Of a stretch of DNA of 64,000 bases, positions 14,394 through 22,419 are shown piece after piece. The number at the start of each line of letters is the position of its first letter. The stretch's first letter is position 1. The position numbers were made by a program, and so were the translations under genes. The notes under the pieces were generated by a model. That model was not told the origin of the DNA. It saw only the letters and a list, made by a program, of their open reading frames with translations, and searched no databases. The DNA is from an uncultured SAR86 cluster bacterium (GTDB lineage Bacteria > Pseudomonadota > Gammaproteobacteria > Magnimaribacterales > D2472): contig CACPCZ010000001.1 in NCBI GenBank assembly GCA_902632555.1, forward strand, positions 98,572-162,571. Reading direction: 5' to 3'.

Positions 14394-15311
14394 CTATTTT
14401 TTTGAACAATACATGCATTCTGGTAATTCACTAAATTTTTCTTTTTGATATAAACCAATCCTTCGACATTTTTTACATTCTGCTCTTATTTCTTTTTTAA
14501 TTATGTCCACGTATTTCATAGAAGAGAAATTGAAATTCTCTCCATGTTCGTCCGTAAGATTATTTTTTTCATAATCAAGTTTTTTTCTTCTATATTCTTT
14601 TGCTCTGCAAGTTTCTGAACAGAACTTTTGAATATTCCCTTTTGATGAGTCGACAAAGTTTGATGAGCAAAATTTACAAGATTTTAGTTCAGGATTATTT
14701 TTTGAATATTTATAAAGAGCAATTGCACCTCCAAGACATGTTGAGAAAATTCTTATTTCGTTTTTTTGAGTATCAATAAAATTAATATTTCTATTAAAGT
14801 GCTTATTAAGAAAGAATTCATTAACTGACCATTTCGCACCTACACTTCTTTTTGGATCTAACAATACTTTCCACTCAGCTAATAATTCAGAGTAAATGAG
14901 TTTTTCATATAATTTTTCTTCATTAAAATCACCTGAAAAATTTTCCGGAAAACTCTCAGCAAAATTTGCATATATGGATTCGGTAGTTGTATCTATAATC
15001 GGCAGTTCAGAAGCAAACTTGTGTGTGGCTGTTAGTAATCCATATTTATTAACAATATTTAAAAATTCTTTAGACTCGAAGAAGTCAATCTTATTAATTT
15101 CAACTTCTTTTTGCGCTTCACTAATTTCTATATAAAACTCTGCAATATTTAATTTTTTGAATATAAAACTATTTTTGTCGATAGCATCAATGGTTGAGTG
15201 TCTAAATTTGGATCCATTTCTAATAGTTACACTTGTATTTATTGTATAACCACTTTTATGCACAACATTATATATTGCGGGGTTGGTCTTTAAATTTATC
15301 TCTTTTTTCAT
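14394..15311 (-). CDS. Hypothetical protein with CGNR-like zinc finger and a second C-terminal Cys4 ribbon
   Basis: CKFC..F.D.S....KFCSETCR...YRRKK, then CKKC...CMYC. Confidence 0.65.
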   Translation of the reverse strand: MKKEINLKTNPAIYNVVHKSGYTINTSVTIRNGSKFRHSTIDAIDKNSFIFKKLNIAEFYIEISEAQKEVEINKIDFFESKEFLNIVNKYGLLTATHKFASELPIIDTTTESIYANFAESFPENFSGDFNEEKLYEKLIYSELLAEWKVLLDPKRSVGAKWSVNEFFLNKHFNRNINFIDTQKNEIRIFSTCLGGAIALYKYSKNNPELKSCKFCSSNFVDSSKGNIQKFCSETCRAKEYRRKKLDYEKNNLTDEHGENFNFSSMKYVDIIKKEIRAECKKCRRIGLYQKEKFSELPECMYCSKK

Positions 15312-15525
15312 AAATTTTTATTAAAAATATCCACTTGTGAATATTAATTACGCTTATTTTACTTTTAAGAATAGCATATTATAAATATTCGTGCATAATT
15401 AATCACGTATAAAACATTGCTTATTCATGCAAAGTACTCTATCATTGTCTTTTTATCATTATAAAAATTATTTATTTGTGATTAATAAATAAAATTATTA
15501 TAGCTTTTAAAGCAGGAGAACAAAA

Positions 15526-15684
15526 ATGAAAATCACAAGAGATATAACCACTCTATTAATAAACAATTGGTTTAAAAAATTTAATGAGGATTTTAACTAT
15601 GGAAAATATAGTTACCTTTCCTCCGTTAAGAGATTTAAAGTCTATGATTACTCTTCCAATAAAATGGTTGAGTGTAGATCTTGA
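15526..15684 (+). CDS. Possible unannotated 52-aa ORF
   Basis: AGGAG at 15514-15518 before ATG 15526; MKITRDITTLLINNWFKKF...VECRS; overlaps the next gene. Confidence 0.35.
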   Translation: MKITRDITTLLINNWFKKFNEDFNYGKYSYLSSVKRFKVYDYSSNKMVECRS

Positions 15685-16291
15685 ATATTGTCGAGATGAG
15701 CTTGATAGAAAATTTTGTGTTACAGAAATCGCATTTTATGACATTTATGCAAAGCATGAGGTTTTTAGAACTTATGTCAAGCCAAAAGATAATTTCTTAC
15801 TTTCAAGAAGAATGCAAGAGAAGGGAATCAGTATTAATGATATTAACTCTTCTCCAACTATGGAAGAGCTAGATCAGCTTTTAAGAACATTCTTACCAAG
15901 TTGTATATTAGTTTTTTGGAATGCTGAAAATGATCTTAGACATTACCCTAAATTAAAAACATATTCATATGGAACACGTTGTGCAATGAAAAGATACAGT
16001 GAACGGCATGGGCCATATAATTTTGATTGGGGAACTCATAAATTTCTTAAGCTTAAAGATGTAGCAATTGAAGAAGGATTCGTTCTTGAAGAAAACGAGA
16101 GGTTTCATCAGGCACTAACAGATGCAAGGGCAACCGGATATATATGGGATATTCTTGATAAAGAAACACTTCCATCTCCAATTCCCTTAGATCTTGTTTT
16201 GAGAGAAGATGTTGAAAAACTTCTGCTTGAATCACAAACTTTAATTGCCGACTTTAAAGAGGAAGAAAAAGAAGACCCCATTCCATTTTAG
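15599..16291 (+). CDS. DEDDh (DnaQ-like) 3'-5' exonuclease with acidic SSB-like C-terminus
   Basis: ExoI VDLEY, ExoII WNAEND, ExoIII HQALTD; ends EEEKEDPIPF; ATG 15599 follows GAGGA. Confidence 0.8.
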   Translation: MENIVTFPPLRDLKSMITLPIKWLSVDLEYCRDELDRKFCVTEIAFYDIYAKHEVFRTYVKPKDNFLLSRRMQEKGISINDINSSPTMEELDQLLRTFLPSCILVFWNAENDLRHYPKLKTYSYGTRCAMKRYSERHGPYNFDWGTHKFLKLKDVAIEEGFVLEENERFHQALTDARATGYIWDILDKETLPSPIPLDLVLREDVEKLLLESQTLIADFKEEEKEDPIPF

Positions 16292-16311
16292 GAATAGGGC
16301 CAACTAATAAA

Positions 16312-16356
16312 GTTGTGTGATAAAAACACTAACCAAGTTTAATTTTATCACACAAC
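16312..16356. repeat. Perfect 14-bp inverted repeat with 17-nt spacer
   Basis: GTTGTGTGATAAAA (16312-16325) / TTTTATCACACAAC (16343-16356), followed by ATTTTT. Confidence 0.85.
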
Positions 16357-16378
16357 ATTTTTACATAAGGAAATTAAA

Positions 16379-16702
16379 ATGCAGTTTGATAAAAAACAAC
16401 AAGTTTTCATATTATTAGAAGAAATTAGAAAAAAGGTTGGCTATTATGCAAACCATTCTTTAGAAGATTTCAGACGTGTTCCAGTTAAGACATTAGTTTG
16501 GTTGGCGCTTGATAATTCTTTTCTGGAATTACAAATAAAACAGTTAAAAGATAAGCTCGAAGAGAATAAAATTTTTTTTGATTTTGAAGTAAAAGCTCAG
16601 AATGACATTATCCCTGATGACGAAGATTATTTAGAAGCAGGGCTAAAAATTCTCGATGATCTTGAAGATATGGAAATATCAACTAGATATCCAAAGAATT
16701 AG
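16379..16702 (+). CDS. Hypothetical protein (coiled-coil-like, acidic C-terminus)
   Basis: 107-aa ORF preceded by TAAGGA RBS; no recognisable motif. Confidence 0.65.
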   Translation: MQFDKKQQVFILLEEIRKKVGYYANHSLEDFRRVPVKTLVWLALDNSFLELQIKQLKDKLEENKIFFDFEVKAQNDIIPDDEDYLEAGLKILDDLEDMEISTRYPKN

Positions 16703-16793: not shown

Positions 16794-16800
16794 AAGCTTA

Positions 16801-16883
16801 ATGCAAAGGGGTGGCTTAATTAGCCTGAGATCTTACGAAACTCTTTGAACCTGATCAACACAATAGTTGCGGAGGAATTGCAT
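16801..16883 (+). ncRNA. TPP riboswitch (THI element)
   Basis: GGGGTG...CTGAGA...ACTCTTTGAACCTGATC-AAC/GTT-GCGGAGGAA; P1 ATGCAA/TTGCAT; upstream of thiamine-type uptake genes. Confidence 0.92.
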
Positions 16884-18980
16884 ATGTATATCAGAAAAAG
16901 ATTTTTATTTTTATTACCTTTAATTTTTTCTTTATCAGTTTCATCTAATGATATTGAAGAGATAATTGTTCAGGGCGAATATAGAGAAAAATCTATTAGT
17001 GATGAAGATTCTAGTATTTCTATTATTCAATCAGAAAAAATAAAATCACAAGCCATAAAACATTTTCAACAACTTTCTTACCTTGTTCCAAATTTAAATT
17101 ATGCCGCCTCAGATTCTAGAGCTAGGTATTTTCAAATTAGAGGAATAGGGGAAAGATCTGGATATCAAGGCACGCCAAATTCTTCAGTAGGATTTTTGAT
17201 TGATGATATTGATTATTCTGGACAAGGTGGAATTGCAACTTTATTTGATGTGGATCAGGTTGAAGTCTTTCGTGGGCCACAAGGATCGAGAACAGGAGCA
17301 AATGCTTTAGCAGGATTAATTTATATAAAAACAAAAGATCCAACAAATCAATTTGAAGGAACTTCTGAAATTACTCTTGGAGATTATGGAACCCAAAATT
17401 TAGGTATTGCTTTTGGCGGCCCTATGAAAAATGAAAAACTTAAATATCGTCTCGTATTAAGAACAGATTATGCAGATGGCTTTAGAAAAAATATTTTTTT
17501 AAACAAGTCAGACACTTCTAAAAAAGACGAGCTGACATTACGATATAAATTAAATTGGGATCTTAATGAGACTACAGAAATTAATTTTCTTATTTCAAAA
17601 GTTGATATGGATGATCCAGCAGACATATGGACAATAGATGGCAGTTTAAACACTTTATCTGATCGTCCAGGAATGGATTCGCAAGAAACAGATTCTTATG
17701 GAATAAAAATTACAAAAAACTTTAACAATTTTGATCTACAAAGTTTTACAAGTGTGACCAACACAGATGTAAATTTTAGTTACGATGCTGATTGGGGTAA
17801 TTCCGAGTCACATTTTCCATATATTTACGATTATTTTTCTGAAACACTCAGAAAAAGGGATACTTTTAGCCAAGAAATACGTTTTCTGTCCAAAAATACA
17901 GATTTTTCACAAAAAAATCCGTTTGAGTGGGTTTTTGGTTTTGATTTTAGTGAATTAGAAGAAATGAATGTAACAAGAGATGATGGAATTTATGGTGATC
18001 CATCTGATCCATACGGCCCTTATGAAAGTGAATCAGTAGTTTCAAGGAATTATGAAGCTGAAAATTTATCATTGTTCGGAAACATTGATTACTTCCTTTC
18101 AGAAAATTATAAGTTAGCTTTTGGATTAAGATGGGAAAATTGGGACTCAAAATATAATGATTCAAATCAAGAATCATTCAATCCGTCTGACAACATGAAT
18201 GGAGGAAAAATTTCTCTGATTAAAAATAATGATAATTCAAATATTTATTTTTCAATTGCACGAGGATATAAACAGGGTGGGTTTAATCTTGGTTTAGATG
18301 CAACTGATAATTCAATAAAAGACTCTTTAATATATGATCCAGAATTTTTGACTAACTACGAAATCGGATTAAGCTCAAATAACAATAACTCAATCCTGAA
18401 TTATTCAGCAGTTTTTTTCTTTTCAAAAAGAGAAGATCAGCAAGTTTTAATTTCAAGGCAAGTAGATCCAACTGACCCAAATACTTTTTCATATTTGACC
18501 CAAAATGCAGCAGAGGGTGAAAATTATGGATTAGAAATTAGCTCAAATTATTTTGTTAGAGATAATCTAAATCTGTATGCTAATTTCGGCCTGCTTAAAA
18601 CAAAAATAAAAAATTGGGAATCTAGAAGTGACCTAGAAAATAGAGCACAAGCTCATGCACCAGAAAGAAACTTTTCATTAGGCGCAAACCTAGCATTTAA
18701 GAATAATTTTTATTTAAAGATGGATATTAATGGGAAGAGTAGCTTTTTTTACTCTGATTCACATAATAATAAATCTAAAAGTTATAAGCTTGTAAACCTT
18801 TCATTAGGCTATACAAAATCAAATTTTTCAACAGATATATGGGTAAGAAATCTATTTGATGAATATTACTCTACTAGAGGTTTTTTCTTCGGAAATGAGG
18901 CTCCAAATTTCGTTGATACTTTGTATAGAAGACAAGGTGATCCAAAAAATATTGGCATCTCTTTAAGATATGATTTTTAA
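16884..18980 (+). CDS. TonB-dependent receptor, probably for thiamine
   Basis: Signal peptide, EEIIV TonB box, plug VEVFRGPQG, C-terminal YDF; under TPP riboswitch; start ATG 16884. Confidence 0.9.
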   Translation: MYIRKRFLFLLPLIFSLSVSSNDIEEIIVQGEYREKSISDEDSSISIIQSEKIKSQAIKHFQQLSYLVPNLNYAASDSRARYFQIRGIGERSGYQGTPNSSVGFLIDDIDYSGQGGIATLFDVDQVEVFRGPQGSRTGANALAGLIYIKTKDPTNQFEGTSEITLGDYGTQNLGIAFGGPMKNEKLKYRLVLRTDYADGFRKNIFLNKSDTSKKDELTLRYKLNWDLNETTEINFLISKVDMDDPADIWTIDGSLNTLSDRPGMDSQETDSYGIKITKNFNNFDLQSFTSVTNTDVNFSYDADWGNSESHFPYIYDYFSETLRKRDTFSQEIRFLSKNTDFSQKNPFEWVFGFDFSELEEMNVTRDDGIYGDPSDPYGPYESESVVSRNYEAENLSLFGNIDYFLSENYKLAFGLRWENWDSKYNDSNQESFNPSDNMNGGKISLIKNNDNSNIYFSIARGYKQGGFNLGLDATDNSIKDSLIYDPEFLTNYEIGLSSNNNNSILNYSAVFFFSKREDQQVLISRQVDPTDPNTFSYLTQNAAEGENYGLEISSNYFVRDNLNLYANFGLLKTKIKNWESRSDLENRAQAHAPERNFSLGANLAFKNNFYLKMDINGKSSFFYSDSHNNKSKSYKLVNLSLGYTKSNFSTDIWVRNLFDEYYSTRGFFFGNEAPNFVDTLYRRQGDPKNIGISLRYDF

Positions 18981-18986
18981 AATTAC

Positions 18987-19559
18987 ATGACTCTATTTAT
19001 TCTAGAAAGTGTAGCAGTCATTTCTGCAATATTGTATCTGATTTTAGCAGGAAAAGAAGATGTAAAGTGCTGGTATGCGGCTATATTTAGCTCTTTGCTT
19101 TATATATATATTATGTATCAAGCTGGCTTGATAATGGAATCAATCTTACAAATATTTTATGTAGTAATGGCAATTTACGGATGGTTGCAGTGGAACAATC
19201 TTATAAATAAAAATTCAACACTGAGGATTAGAAGATGGAAAAAAATTAATCATTTATATTCTCTTTTTTCAGTAATAATTTTGGCGGTAATATCTGGAAT
19301 TTTATTAGAAAAATATACTAAAGCAGCATTACCCTTTTTGGATGCATTTACAACATGGGGAGCAATAATAACTACATACATGGTTGCAAAAAAAATAATA
19401 GAGAATTGGATTTATTGGTTTGTCATAGATTCGATCTCAATTTATTTATTTATTTCTAGAGAACTTTATTTAACTGCTTTTTTATTCTTAATATATTTAA
19501 TAATAATAATTTTTGGATATAAATCTTGGAGAAAAAAATTACTAGAATCAAATGGATAA
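18987..19559 (+). CDS. Pnu-family vitamin transporter (PnuT-like, thiamine)
   Basis: LQIFY...YGW.QW, PFLDAFTT, ENWIYWFVID motifs; specificity inferred from riboswitch. Confidence 0.88.
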   Translation: MTLFILESVAVISAILYLILAGKEDVKCWYAAIFSSLLYIYIMYQAGLIMESILQIFYVVMAIYGWLQWNNLINKNSTLRIRRWKKINHLYSLFSVIILAVISGILLEKYTKAALPFLDAFTTWGAIITTYMVAKKIIENWIYWFVIDSISIYLFISRELYLTAFLFLIYLIIIIFGYKSWRKKLLESNG

Positions 19560-20301
19560 AATTTTAAAGGAGCTTAAAAAACATAAAGTTTATGTTGAAG
19601 ATTTATTTATTTTAAGAAATGGTGAAACCTCAAATACGTACCTAGCCAAACAGAATGATAAAAAAATTGTTTTAAAAATTTTCAAAAAAAATTACCTAAA
19701 AATTAACATCAATTCGTATTTAGAAATTAATGTACTTGAACAGTTAATTCAGAATAAAATTTTTCCGAAGGTTATTACACACAACCAAGAATTGGGTATT
19801 CTAATTTATGAATATGTTGAACCTCTCTCATATAAAAAAAATAAGAAATTTATTTCAATGCTTGGCAATCAGATTAAAAAAATACATGGCGTAAAAGTAG
19901 AGAAAGATTTTTATTGTTTTGATGAACAAATAGAAAAGTACAAAAGTATTTTAGGTAAAAAGTTAGATAAAGATTTTCAAAGACTACATAAATTAATTAC
20001 TAGAGCAAAGCAATACAAATCTAAAATCTGTTTTTCACATAATGATCTAAACAGAGATAACATTATTCACAACAAAGAAATTTATTTCATTGATTATGAG
20101 TATGCATCTTTAAATAATATTTTTTGTGATTTAACCCGAGTAATCCAAGAGTACTCACTTAATAATGCAGAAATAAATACTCTTACAAATAGCTATGGTA
20201 TTCAAAATTCAAAAGATGTAATGGATCAAATAGAAATATGGACAAATATAAATACTCTTGTAGATAAAATTTGGAGTGAGATGATTTTAAAGTCACTCTA
20301 G
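19552..20301 (+). CDS. Choline kinase/APH-like phosphotransferase, probable thiamine kinase
   Basis: GETSNTY loop, VLK, HNDLNRDNI and IDYEYA motifs; operon context. Confidence 0.75.
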   Translation: MDKILKELKKHKVYVEDLFILRNGETSNTYLAKQNDKKIVLKIFKKNYLKININSYLEINVLEQLIQNKIFPKVITHNQELGILIYEYVEPLSYKKNKKFISMLGNQIKKIHGVKVEKDFYCFDEQIEKYKSILGKKLDKDFQRLHKLITRAKQYKSKICFSHNDLNRDNIIHNKEIYFIDYEYASLNNIFCDLTRVIQEYSLNNAEINTLTNSYGIQNSKDVMDQIEIWTNINTLVDKIWSEMILKSL

Positions 20302-20429
20302 TAATAAACTAAATTAAAAATTTAAATATTACTAATTACATCAATAGATAAATTTTTATAAAAAAAAGATTATAAATATAAGTCAAAAATGAACCTGAAT
20401 TAATTTTTTTGTGTAAGTAAATAAAGAAA

Positions 20430-20984
20430 TTAAGCAATAAAGGCAATAAATAAAGTAAAAATTACAATAACTATGGGTACAATTTTATCAATTTTTATAA
20501 CAATATCGTCTTTTTCAGGGAATTTTGGCAATTTTAATGAAAAAATAGTATATCGTTCATCTTCTTTGTACTCATAACTTGAAATGTTACGATCTGTACT
20601 CATGGGTACATTCACTTTAATCATATTATCTTTTTCATCTATACTTTCATCCAATTCTATATCATTATGCTCAGATATGTGCTCTCTTTCAGCAATTTCT
20701 TCACTATTTAGATTAGAATCTTCTTTAATTGGATTTTCAAAGACTTTCTCCTTTTCATCCTGAACACTTTCTGCTTCTGAACTATTTAATGTAATTTTAT
20801 TTAAATCAGATAGAATTTCGTCTCTTTTTATTATTGCTTCGGTTAGATTAGTAGTTTCAAGAGATTTCTTTATAAAATTTTTACCAATTATCTTAGATTG
20901 CTCTTTAGAAAGTCTTTTTTGAATGAAGTAAATATCCTTATTTTTACCCCTAAGTACTAAGTATTTTTCGTTTTTTGTACTCAT
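20430..20984 (-). CDS. Tail-anchored protein with integrase arm-binding-like (DUF6538-like) N-terminal domain
   Basis: YLVLRG...YFIQKR......IIGKNFIKKSLET.NL.EAI..RD pattern; acidic linker; C-terminal hydrophobic helix IVPIVIVIFTLFIAFIA. Confidence 0.65.
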   Translation of the reverse strand: MSTKNEKYLVLRGKNKDIYFIQKRLSKEQSKIIGKNFIKKSLETTNLTEAIIKRDEILSDLNKITLNSSEAESVQDEKEKVFENPIKEDSNLNSEEIAEREHISEHNDIELDESIDEKDNMIKVNVPMSTDRNISSYEYKEDERYTIFSLKLPKFPEKDDIVIKIDKIVPIVIVIFTLFIAFIA

Positions 20985-21081
20985 AATGTACTCACAATGT
21001 TAAACAATTAATTTTAAATTTGCAATCTTTTGTACCCATTTTTTTCTTTTCTACTATTTTTTTTCCAATTTGTACTCATAA
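20473..21081. repeat. Cluster of eight TGTACYCA motifs
   Basis: Forward copies at 20567, 20595, 20976, 20987, 21031, 21071; reverse copies (ATGGGTACA) at 20473-20481 and 20602-20610. Confidence 0.9.
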
Positions 21082-21222
21082 TATCTTGTATTTTCACTTA
21101 TATAAGTTTTTTTTTGAGTATATTTTATGTTTTAACTATTATTGCTATTAGTATATTTGTTGTTGTGTTTAATTTTTTTTGTTTTAACATTAGTATTCAC
21201 AAATTATTTGGGGAGTAACTAT

Positions 21223-22419
21223 ATGAAAATATTATGTGTTTTATACGATGATCCTATTTCTGGGATGCCAGAGAGTTATGCTAGAGATGATTTACCTAAG
21301 CTTGATAAGTATCCTGATGGAATGACTTTACCATCTCCTAGTTCTGTGGATTTCAATCCAGGTGAACTTTTAGGTTGCGTATCAGGTGAGCTAGGTCTAA
21401 GAAAGTTTTTAGAAGATGCTGGTCATACTTTGGTTGTAACTTCAGATAAAGACGGAGAAGGTTGTACAGCTGACAAAGAACTAGTTGATGCAGACATTGT
21501 TATTTCTCAACCTTTCTGGCCTTACTATTTAACTAGAGACAAGATGGAATCTGCTCCTAATTTGAAGATGGCCATTACTGCTGGTATTGGCTCTGATCAC
21601 GTAGATTTGCAAGCAGCAATGGACAATAATGTTGATGTTGTAGAAGTTACATATTGTAATTCGAGATCAGTTGCTGAACATATTGTCATGATGATTCTTT
21701 CTATGGTGAGGGACTATCATAATCAACACAGAATTGTTAAAGAAGGTGGATGGAATATTGCCGATGCTGTTCAACGCTCATACGATGTTGAGGGCATGCA
21801 CGTCGGAACAGTTGCTGCTGGCAGGATAGGTATTGATATGCTTAGAAAAATGAAACCTTTCGATGTGCATTTGCATTACTTTGATATTCATAAACTGCCA
21901 GACGAAGTCGAAGCGGAATTAAACCTTACCTATCATGATTCAGTAGAGTCCCTTGTTTCAGTATGTGATGTTGTGAATATTAGCTGTCCTCTGCATCCAA
22001 AAACTGAACATTTATTTAATGATGAATTAATTAGCAAGATGAAGCGAGGAGCTTACATAGTAAATACTGCAAGGGGTAAAATTTGTGACAAAGATGCTAT
22101 TGCAAGGGCGTTAGAATCTGGTCAGCTAAGTGGTTATGCCGGCGACGTATGGTTTCCACAACCAGCTCCTAATGATCATGTTTGGAGATCAATGCCCAAT
22201 CATGGAATGACTCCACATACATCAGGAACTTCATTATCTGCTCAAGCAAGATATGCTGCTGGGGTTAGAGAAATTTTAGAATGCTTCTTTGAAGGTAAAC
22301 CTATTAGAGAACCATACTTAATTGTTCAAAATGGTGATTTAGCAGGCATGGGAGCACATTCATATACCAAAGGCACTGCTACTGACGGCTCAGAAGAGGC
22401 AGCAAAGTATAAAAAATAA
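21223..22419 (+). CDS. fdh: NAD-dependent formate dehydrogenase (metal-independent)
   Basis: KILCVLYDDP, LLGCVSGELGLR, AGIGSDHVD, AAGRIG, NTARG, GDVWFPQPAP, TPHTSG; GGGGAG RBS before ATG 21223. Confidence 0.95.
   Translation: MKILCVLYDDPISGMPESYARDDLPKLDKYPDGMTLPSPSSVDFNPGELLGCVSGELGLRKFLEDAGHTLVVTSDKDGEGCTADKELVDADIVISQPFWPYYLTRDKMESAPNLKMAITAGIGSDHVDLQAAMDNNVDVVEVTYCNSRSVAEHIVMMILSMVRDYHNQHRIVKEGGWNIADAVQRSYDVEGMHVGTVAAGRIGIDMLRKMKPFDVHLHYFDIHKLPDEVEAELNLTYHDSVESLVSVCDVVNISCPLHPKTEHLFNDELISKMKRGAYIVNTARGKICDKDAIARALESGQLSGYAGDVWFPQPAPNDHVWRSMPNHGMTPHTSGTSLSAQARYAAGVREILECFFEGKPIREPYLIVQNGDLAGMGAHSYTKGTATDGSEEAAKYKK

Follow-up and report, generated by a model that had tools for sequence, protein, structure and literature searches.

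A tRNA-Glu integrase head in a host gene, its clustered 8-bp sites and a possible membrane anchor for the origin region

The lac operator set O1/O2/O3 combines a promoter operator with auxiliary sites. Among tyrosine integrases, the placement of arm sites over the integrase promoter was demonstrated to cause autorepression for IntS of prophage KplE1 (PMC2951348), and arm-binding domains are described as composed of three strands and a helix (PMC8138268). Two membrane-anchored DNA-binding proteins are also relevant here. The Staphylococcus aureus protein RicO is reported to contain an N-terminal sequence-specific DNA-binding domain and a C-terminal membrane anchor and to coexist with ParB, and the RicO-ricS system is characterised by a few origin-proximal 18-bp sites over about 700 kb and by a coiled coil and an amphipathic helix (bioRxiv 10.64898/2026.03.06.710092). 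Streptococcus pneumoniae RocS comprises a DNA-binding domain, a spacer and a C-terminal membrane anchor, and its abstract specifies no binding motif (PMC11500499).

The stretch analysed here, referred to as the window, is 64 kb long (G000:C1:98572-162571) and belongs to a genome (G000) with a GC content of 33%, which contains a proteorhodopsin gene, matches marine metagenomes and may be that of an SAR86-type gammaproteobacterium. The gene considered encodes a protein of 184 aa and is located between a thiamine-kinase-like gene on one side and, on the other, a gene for an NAD-dependent dehydrogenase, which we take to be a formate dehydrogenase. Window positions 16797-20301 carry an ordinary thiamine-uptake operon, composed of a TPP riboswitch followed by genes for a TonB-dependent receptor, a PnuC-type transporter and a kinase; three poorly characterised ORFs, encoding a protein of 305 aa that weakly matches the CGNR zinc finger, a 235-aa exonuclease-like protein and a 107-aa orphan, are found at 14394-16702, near tRNA-Ile. 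The features of the gene, its promoter and the repeated 8-bp word TGTACYCA (TGRGTACA on the opposite strand) are the following:

20430..20984, minus strand: 184-aa gene with an integrase-derived head, an acidic variable linker and a C-terminal hydrophobic tail (ORF, orthologs, RNA contigs)
20787..20984, minus strand: DUF6538 head, residues 1-66 (Pfam match below cut-off, integrase query match, AlphaFold model)
20433..20483, minus strand: predicted transmembrane tail, residues 168-184, at the extreme C-terminus (hydropathy)
20474..20481, plus strand: intragenic site (IVPI), opposite to the gene in orientation, where the hydrophobic tail begins (exact match, codon test)
20567..20574, minus strand: intragenic site (YEYK) (exact match, codon test)
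20595..20610, both strands: two abutting intragenic sites of opposite orientation (VPMST), forming a 16-bp quasi-palindrome, present in only 2 of 36 orthologs
20976..20983, minus strand: start-codon site (ATG AGT ACA), in 34 of 36 orthologs
20987..20994, minus strand: site at -10, covering the predicted start of transcription and spaced 11 bp from the start-codon site
20997..21002, minus strand: predicted sigma-70 -10 box TAACAT (promoter pattern in orthologs)
21020..21025, minus strand: predicted sigma-70 -35 box TTGCAA, 17 bp from the -10 box (sequence, upstream-region alignment)
21031..21038, minus strand: upstream site at -54 (16 of 36 orthologs have a site between -51 and -54)
21071..21078, minus strand: upstream site at -94 (19 of 36 orthologs have a site between -91 and -94)

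Orthologs are present in 36 of the 41 genomes of the genus, one locus in each, including all seven genomes that are at least 90% complete, and the synteny with the thiamine-kinase-like gene is retained in 19 of 20 loci, the remaining locus stopping at a contig edge. The product consists of a basic head, an acidic linker predicted to be disordered and a 17-residue hydrophobic tail reaching the C-terminus; the mean Kyte-Doolittle value of the tail is 3.1 over these 17 residues and is at least 2.4 in all 34 complete orthologs. The mean identity among orthologs is 77% in the head and 63% in the tail, and the linker is 50 to 93 residues long. The stretch 20504-20989 is covered by RNA contigs of a single study (two runs), which show neither the level nor the strand of transcription; a contig end at 20989, near the predicted transcription start, gives a weak hint only. 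Two alleles of the linker stretch 20636-20714, with about 10 differing positions, occur in all four DNA runs, and none of the differences listed falls within a site. The gene of G162 (L086:4220-4760) is apparently broken by stops, its four upstream sites being still present, and genes of the genus g16 (L076, L077) contain, within the variable linker, four intragenic sites of alternating orientation, 30 to 39 bp apart.

A Pfam search matched the window protein to DUF6538 (PF20172) with E-values of 0.003 to 0.0004 and 17.7 to 20.4 bits, which is under the gathering cut-off of 27 bits, and revealed no further domain, neither core-binding nor catalytic, in its 184 aa. The parent integrases score above the cut-off, all 22 heads match DUF6538 at E up to 0.05, the DUF6538 label is precomputed on the relatives P0008, P0009, P0011 and P0063, and DUF6538 accounts for 23 of the 30 atlas hits. 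A search with the integrase query matched the window head at E 6e-10, the match being confined to residues 3-81 of the 440 residues of the integrase. These results support the homology of the head to the N-terminus of tRNA-Glu tyrosine integrases, despite the sub-threshold Pfam score. AlphaFold modelling of the head (pLDDT 82) predicted three strands and two helices, and the predicted elements would fit the description of arm-binding domains; the Foldseek search with this model placed the arm-domain structures 3RMP first (TM 0.52, E 0.94) and 3JTZ eighth, neither hit being significant. A sequence search for solved arm domains found no match to the head, the fold search with the full-length model gave no useful match, and none of the longer proteins sharing words with the head scored; the fusions described below came from the genome search.

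Eight exact copies of TGTACYCA, at 20474(-), 20567, 20595, 20603(-), 20976, 20987, 21031 and 21071, lie within 610 bp, in agreement with the local enrichment claimed in the original prediction; the whole window contains 12 copies where shuffling predicts 1.93, a count of 12 not being attained in any of 100 shuffles, and 32 copies are present genome-wide in 1,042,017 bp. The four scattered copies seen earlier by eye are located exactly at 2489, 44276, 47521 and 61655. A genome-wide scan of about 98,000 one-wildcard 8-mers, proposed earlier together with the motif count, made the cluster stand out in G000 as the sole top-40 entry outside two repeat-rich stretches of C2 and C3, the words of which look like peptide repeats. 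Four copies had been placed in the coding sequence, and these indeed lie there, using two frames and both orientations; the count was short by one, a fifth copy (20976) being situated on the start codon. As for the degenerate copies suggested upstream, that at 21115 is a one-mismatch match, whereas nothing within one mismatch exists at 21192. Rfam and tRNA scans revealed no match at the cluster.

The 36 orthologous loci contain 179 copies in the gene or within 200 bp upstream of it, and their 77.9 kb of flanking DNA is free of them. All 137 copies between -200 and +1 are on the coding strand, and the recurrent positions are +1, -10, about -53, -62, -73, -81, -91 and -104, a site at -9 or -10 being found in 34 of 36 orthologs. 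Counted once each, these positions number 19 and follow a period of 10.4-10.5 bp (R 0.7), with p 5e-5 versus random positions, a value overstated by kinship. Directly before the -10 site, the pattern TTG-N-TAnnnT was found in 15 of 36 orthologs versus 5 of 3240 background positions; the promoter form in the orthologs is TTG-17-TAnnnT, ending just before that site. Intragenic copies number 42 in 26 of the 36 loci, with zero to four per ortholog (absent from 10 of 36) and in mixed orientation. In the codon test, the motif occupied 42 of 98 peptide-compatible positions in the orthologs versus 20 of 1723 in 904 other ORFs; xVP[IM] peptides were encoded by motif codons in 28 of 28 intragenic cases versus 2 of 208 in the background, and a compatible class of the LVLR type in the head had motif codons in 0 of 41. 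The genomes compared are kin, and such counts overstate independence. The synonymous-position check in orthologs, suggested with the original prediction, bears out its supposition that selection acts on DNA and not on protein, and the codon data indicate that the cluster is under selection as DNA.

The head profile was searched over 266 genomes of the order; it revealed two full-length proteins of 440 aa, which combine DUF6538, SAM-like and Phage_integrase domains, and, in five genera of the family, the tail-anchored gene. The integrase family comprises 72 matches in the protein collection and 63 metagenome loci; among viral contigs, neither a relative of the integrase nor a phage link was found. 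The 47 integrase loci with an N-terminal match that were analysed represent 42 distinct ones, and in 40 of these 42 a copy of the tRNA-Glu 3'-end lies 120-163 bp upstream of the integrase gene. All 40 core-bearing loci have at least two direct-repeat arms between the tRNA-Glu core and the start, and co-oriented arms continue past the core in 16 of 20 loci with enough far-side DNA, with almost no reverse arms there. The integrase arms overlap the integrase's own TTGACT-17-TATAAT promoter, and the last arm contains the ATG in two integrase clades, likewise in the window gene; the layout common to the parent and the host gene is a -10 box, a site, 11 bp and a site holding the ATG. The arm word is clade-dependent, with at least eight forms in the family, and elements with T[AG]GGTACA arms exist in the same order (G107, G240) and in metagenomes. 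A different arm word is present across the core in 5 of 16 integrase loci (among L109-L165), suggesting tandem elements.

The integrase head nearest to the window head (46%) comes from two loci, the arms of which read exactly TGGGTACA, and the word and layout of the window gene match those of the integrase loci L136, L138, L070 and L071. The host heads all fall into a single clade (100/97), in a tree of 70 columns with a weak deeper order. At the level of sequence, these comparisons show that the head of the window gene descends from a tRNA-Glu-targeting tyrosine integrase family, with the catalytic domain lost and the arm layout kept.

The head was also captured by other proteins. In 10 of 11 genomes of g12, it precedes the Tat signal in a fusion with the Rieske protein of cytochrome bc1; the fusion loci (L072:2805-3668, L073-L075) have two or three sites upstream. 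In the family f3, a DUF6538 head is carried by a flavin/Fe-S oxidoreductase without an evident anchor, with promoter arms in five of five cases and no dnaN-proximal cluster in the same five. One example is the 688-aa oxidoreductase of G083 (f3, genus g9; L088:1560-3626), with an N-terminal DUF6538 match above the cut-off and five AGGTACA words upstream; weak head matches occur in 12 of 16 g9 genomes. This fusion is a capture separate from the tail-anchored gene. The presence of arms and the absence of an origin cluster in this anchorless protein fit an autorepression that moves with the head, and fit equally the idea that origin sites accompany membrane anchoring.

A putative second target is located near the replication origin, the position of which was taken from gene context and a parS consensus, GC skew on C1 being too noisy to place oriC. 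A parS-like palindrome, resembling the parS consensus, is present at recF/gyrB in 79 of 80 regions. Close direct pairs of sites occur in 62 of 64 head-bearing genomes versus 10 of 202 other genomes of the order, and two of these ten head-less carriers, G017 (70% complete) and G113 (79%), belong to head-bearing genera. Many genomes have a pair away from the gene, and the pairs of the origin region lie 1.1 to 3.4 kb from the parS-like palindrome: in the middle of glyS, at the coding end of plsC, between the convergent gyrB and plsC, and between dnaN and recF. G160, G000 and G001 have pairs in plsC. In G000, outside the window, a tandem pair in plsC (C1:17918-17934) and an inverted pair in glyS (C1:19139-19184) are found 2.1 and 3.3 kb, respectively, from the parS-like site at C1:15812.

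The inverted glyS pair was found in 36 of 41 genus genomes in a family-wide search and in 20 of 20 among 81 dnaA-glyS regions, with exact motif codons at both sites in 20 of 20 genus genomes. Head-less genomes with the same glyS WVQ use GTT in 3 of 3 cases (motif in 0 of 3), and those with a compatible glyS GVP[KR] have the motif in 0 of 8. The codon comparison indicates that the glyS pair is under selection at synonymous positions; a chance origin of the glyS copies is overturned by codon use and by recurrence across genomes. In g18, the three head-bearing genomes all have four to five sites from dnaN to glyS (dnaN-recF and in glyS), and 0 of 15 head-less genomes have sites in this interval, 10 single copies being found in lpxL. 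On the gyrB tree, head-less genomes stand among the three head-bearing ones, which do not form one clade. In g12, a pair is present at the gyrB/plsC junction in six of six genomes.

Thus far, origin-near sites were found in g1, g12, head-bearing g18 and G160, and they are missing from 10 of 11 head-bearing genomes of g14 (3 of 3), g16 (2 of 2) and g15 (5 of 6); the parB side was also without pairs in the three of these genomes that were checked. The gene is patchy among near-identical genomes in g14 and g16, so it perhaps arrived there recently, which leaves g15 unexplained. No fixed distance between the gene and dnaN was seen (about 100-110 kb in g1, g15 and g18, 23-37 kb in two g14 genomes and about 270 kb in G174). 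Other secondary clusters are far from the origin, and some are promoter-like; the lineage-specific ones (L177:2647-2755 in G114, L178:2507-2538 in G142, L179:2821-2852 in G153, L180:2731-2798 in G017 and L183-L186 in g15) precede an 81-aa gene, form triplets spaced by 12 bp, surround the lnt 3' end or follow a BamB-like gene. ParB is encoded by 117 of the 139 genomes of the family, both head-bearing and head-less, and the head protein as a replacement for ParB is ruled out, ParB being kept regardless of it.

These observations can be combined in a model in which the repeats bind the gene's own membrane-anchored product, which represses its own promoter and tethers the near-origin chromosome to the membrane; we give the complete model about an even chance. 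Self-binding and autorepression are its probable part. Co-occurrence and ancestry predict that the head still recognises TGRGTACA, and the inherited, phased promoter array would block the promoter as IntS arms do, keeping the protein's own synthesis low. The chances of origin tethering seem to fall just short of even. Through the predicted tail or, in g12, through the Rieske anchor, the heads would stay at the membrane; there they would grip the clustered sites in the gene and near the parS-like site, creating attachment points, and the origin region would be held at the membrane alongside the ParB system. The sites recur beside the parS-like site, in coding sequence or between convergent genes, where no promoter is expected, which argues for positioning and not for gene control. 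TGRGTACA itself is not enriched genome-wide (149 copies versus 180 for the reversed control in four genomes), so tether points would be few. More tentatively still, with the balance leaning somewhat against it, the arm-binding domain of a genomic-island integrase may have become, in a family of streamlined marine bacteria, a sequence-specific link from chromosome to membrane with two kinds of anchor (either a tail helix or the Rieske subunit of cytochrome bc1), its 8-bp site having been written beside parS at five spots, partly by recoding essential genes such as glyS.

The protein might instead be a membrane-bound transcription regulator only, that is, a portable autorepression module with intragenic copies looping to the promoter and distant pairs regulating or roadblocking nearby genes. 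The head-plus-arms module stands separately ahead of an anchorless oxidoreductase and of a Rieske operon, the intragenic sites lie 250-500 bp downstream, resembling lac O2, and some secondary clusters precede genes, such as the four sites before the 81-aa gene in G114. However, the origin-region pairs share a location and not a target, and pure self-repression gives no reason for the 77% identity of the head. We consider this account less likely than the model above, DNA looping between the site groups being plausible in itself. A host defence function, where a catalytically empty membrane head competes for the arms of tRNA-Glu elements and blocks integration, excision or the integrase promoter, would accord with the existence of T[AG]GGTACA-arm elements in the order and in metagenomes, with the eight or more arm-word forms, as escape predicts, and with the empty tRNA-Glu site of G000. 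It appears quite improbable: control of mobile elements leaves the selected sites in glyS and beside parS unexplained, arm diversity equally fits tandem elements avoiding cross-talk, as the differing words across the core indicate, and intact elements in only 2 of 266 genomes are too few to test exclusion.

The original prediction had likened the two groups to the P and P' arms of an attachment site or to a looping operator set. Its integrase-arm ancestry and operator-like role are retained, the upstream group descending from att arms, but the supposed spacer between the arms is the gene's own coding sequence. The region 19501-21300 contains neither a tRNA core nor an IHF consensus; the family attB (tRNA-Glu) is on another contig (C6), empty, with a terminator directly after it; G000 has no cognate 440-aa integrase, its two Phage_integrase matches of about 300 aa being too short; and the intragenic group is mixed in orientation, unlike the co-oriented integrase arms. 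Of the four DNA runs, one contains a single assembled contig in which 20891 is followed directly by 20974, with 20892-20973 skipped; the shorter side of the joint spans 32 letters with a likeness of 90%, such joints often come from other organisms, and this weakly supported joint is not read as recombination. With the synteny to the thiamine-kinase-like gene also stable, it is very improbable that the locus is an attachment site, functional or recently decayed, whose two arms enclose a core. The probability of a chance or protein-driven codon pattern is negligible: the motif was picked after viewing the data, and its words spell common peptides, but the synonymous test refutes this explanation, as do the 8-mer scan, the flank counts and the glyS codons.

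Under the preferred model of a self-binding, membrane-anchored protein, a recombination module of a mobile element, consisting of a DNA-binding head and its sites, was adopted by the host and retained under strong selection in genomes of only about 1.2 Mb; the analysis identifies the putative binding word, the parent element and a second target. If tethering is true, the system would be the Gram-negative equivalent of RicO, with an ancestry that can be traced, and it might connect a respiratory complex directly to the origin region. For DUF6538, heads can now be paired with their arm words, which should help to decipher its specificity. The searched literature, with subscription journals mostly outside its coverage, contained no mention of DUF6538 and no description matching this head/site system.

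Compared with the known systems, the protein would resemble the heterobivalent tyrosine integrases, including IntS, in its predicted N-terminal head of three strands and a helix. The direct-repeat arms of integrases lie over the promoter and beside a tRNA 3' core, and the host gene is alike in its promoter arms and predicted self-repression; unlike IntS, it lacks the core-binding and catalytic domains and the core site, having a predicted membrane tail instead, and, unlike integrases, it is a vertically kept host gene in this genus with extra sites within coding sequences. The lac operators O1/O2/O3 are similar in combining a promoter operator with auxiliary sites about 400 bp inside the gene; the present sites differ in being direct-repeat 8-mers with a self-encoded, predicted membrane-anchored binder and no known inducer domain. 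RocS shares the predicted arrangement of a DNA-binding domain, a spacer and a C-terminal membrane anchor, and it differs in its coiled coil and amphipathic helix (PMC11500499) and in the origin of its head. RicO is the nearest working model for the 184-aa protein by analogy, since both would combine an N-terminal DNA-binding head, a C-terminal anchor, a few origin-near sites and the presence of ParB; in the protein described here, the head derives from an integrase, the linker is acidic and predicted to be disordered, the tail is predicted to be transmembrane, and the corresponding word has 8 bp and occurs in tight clusters.
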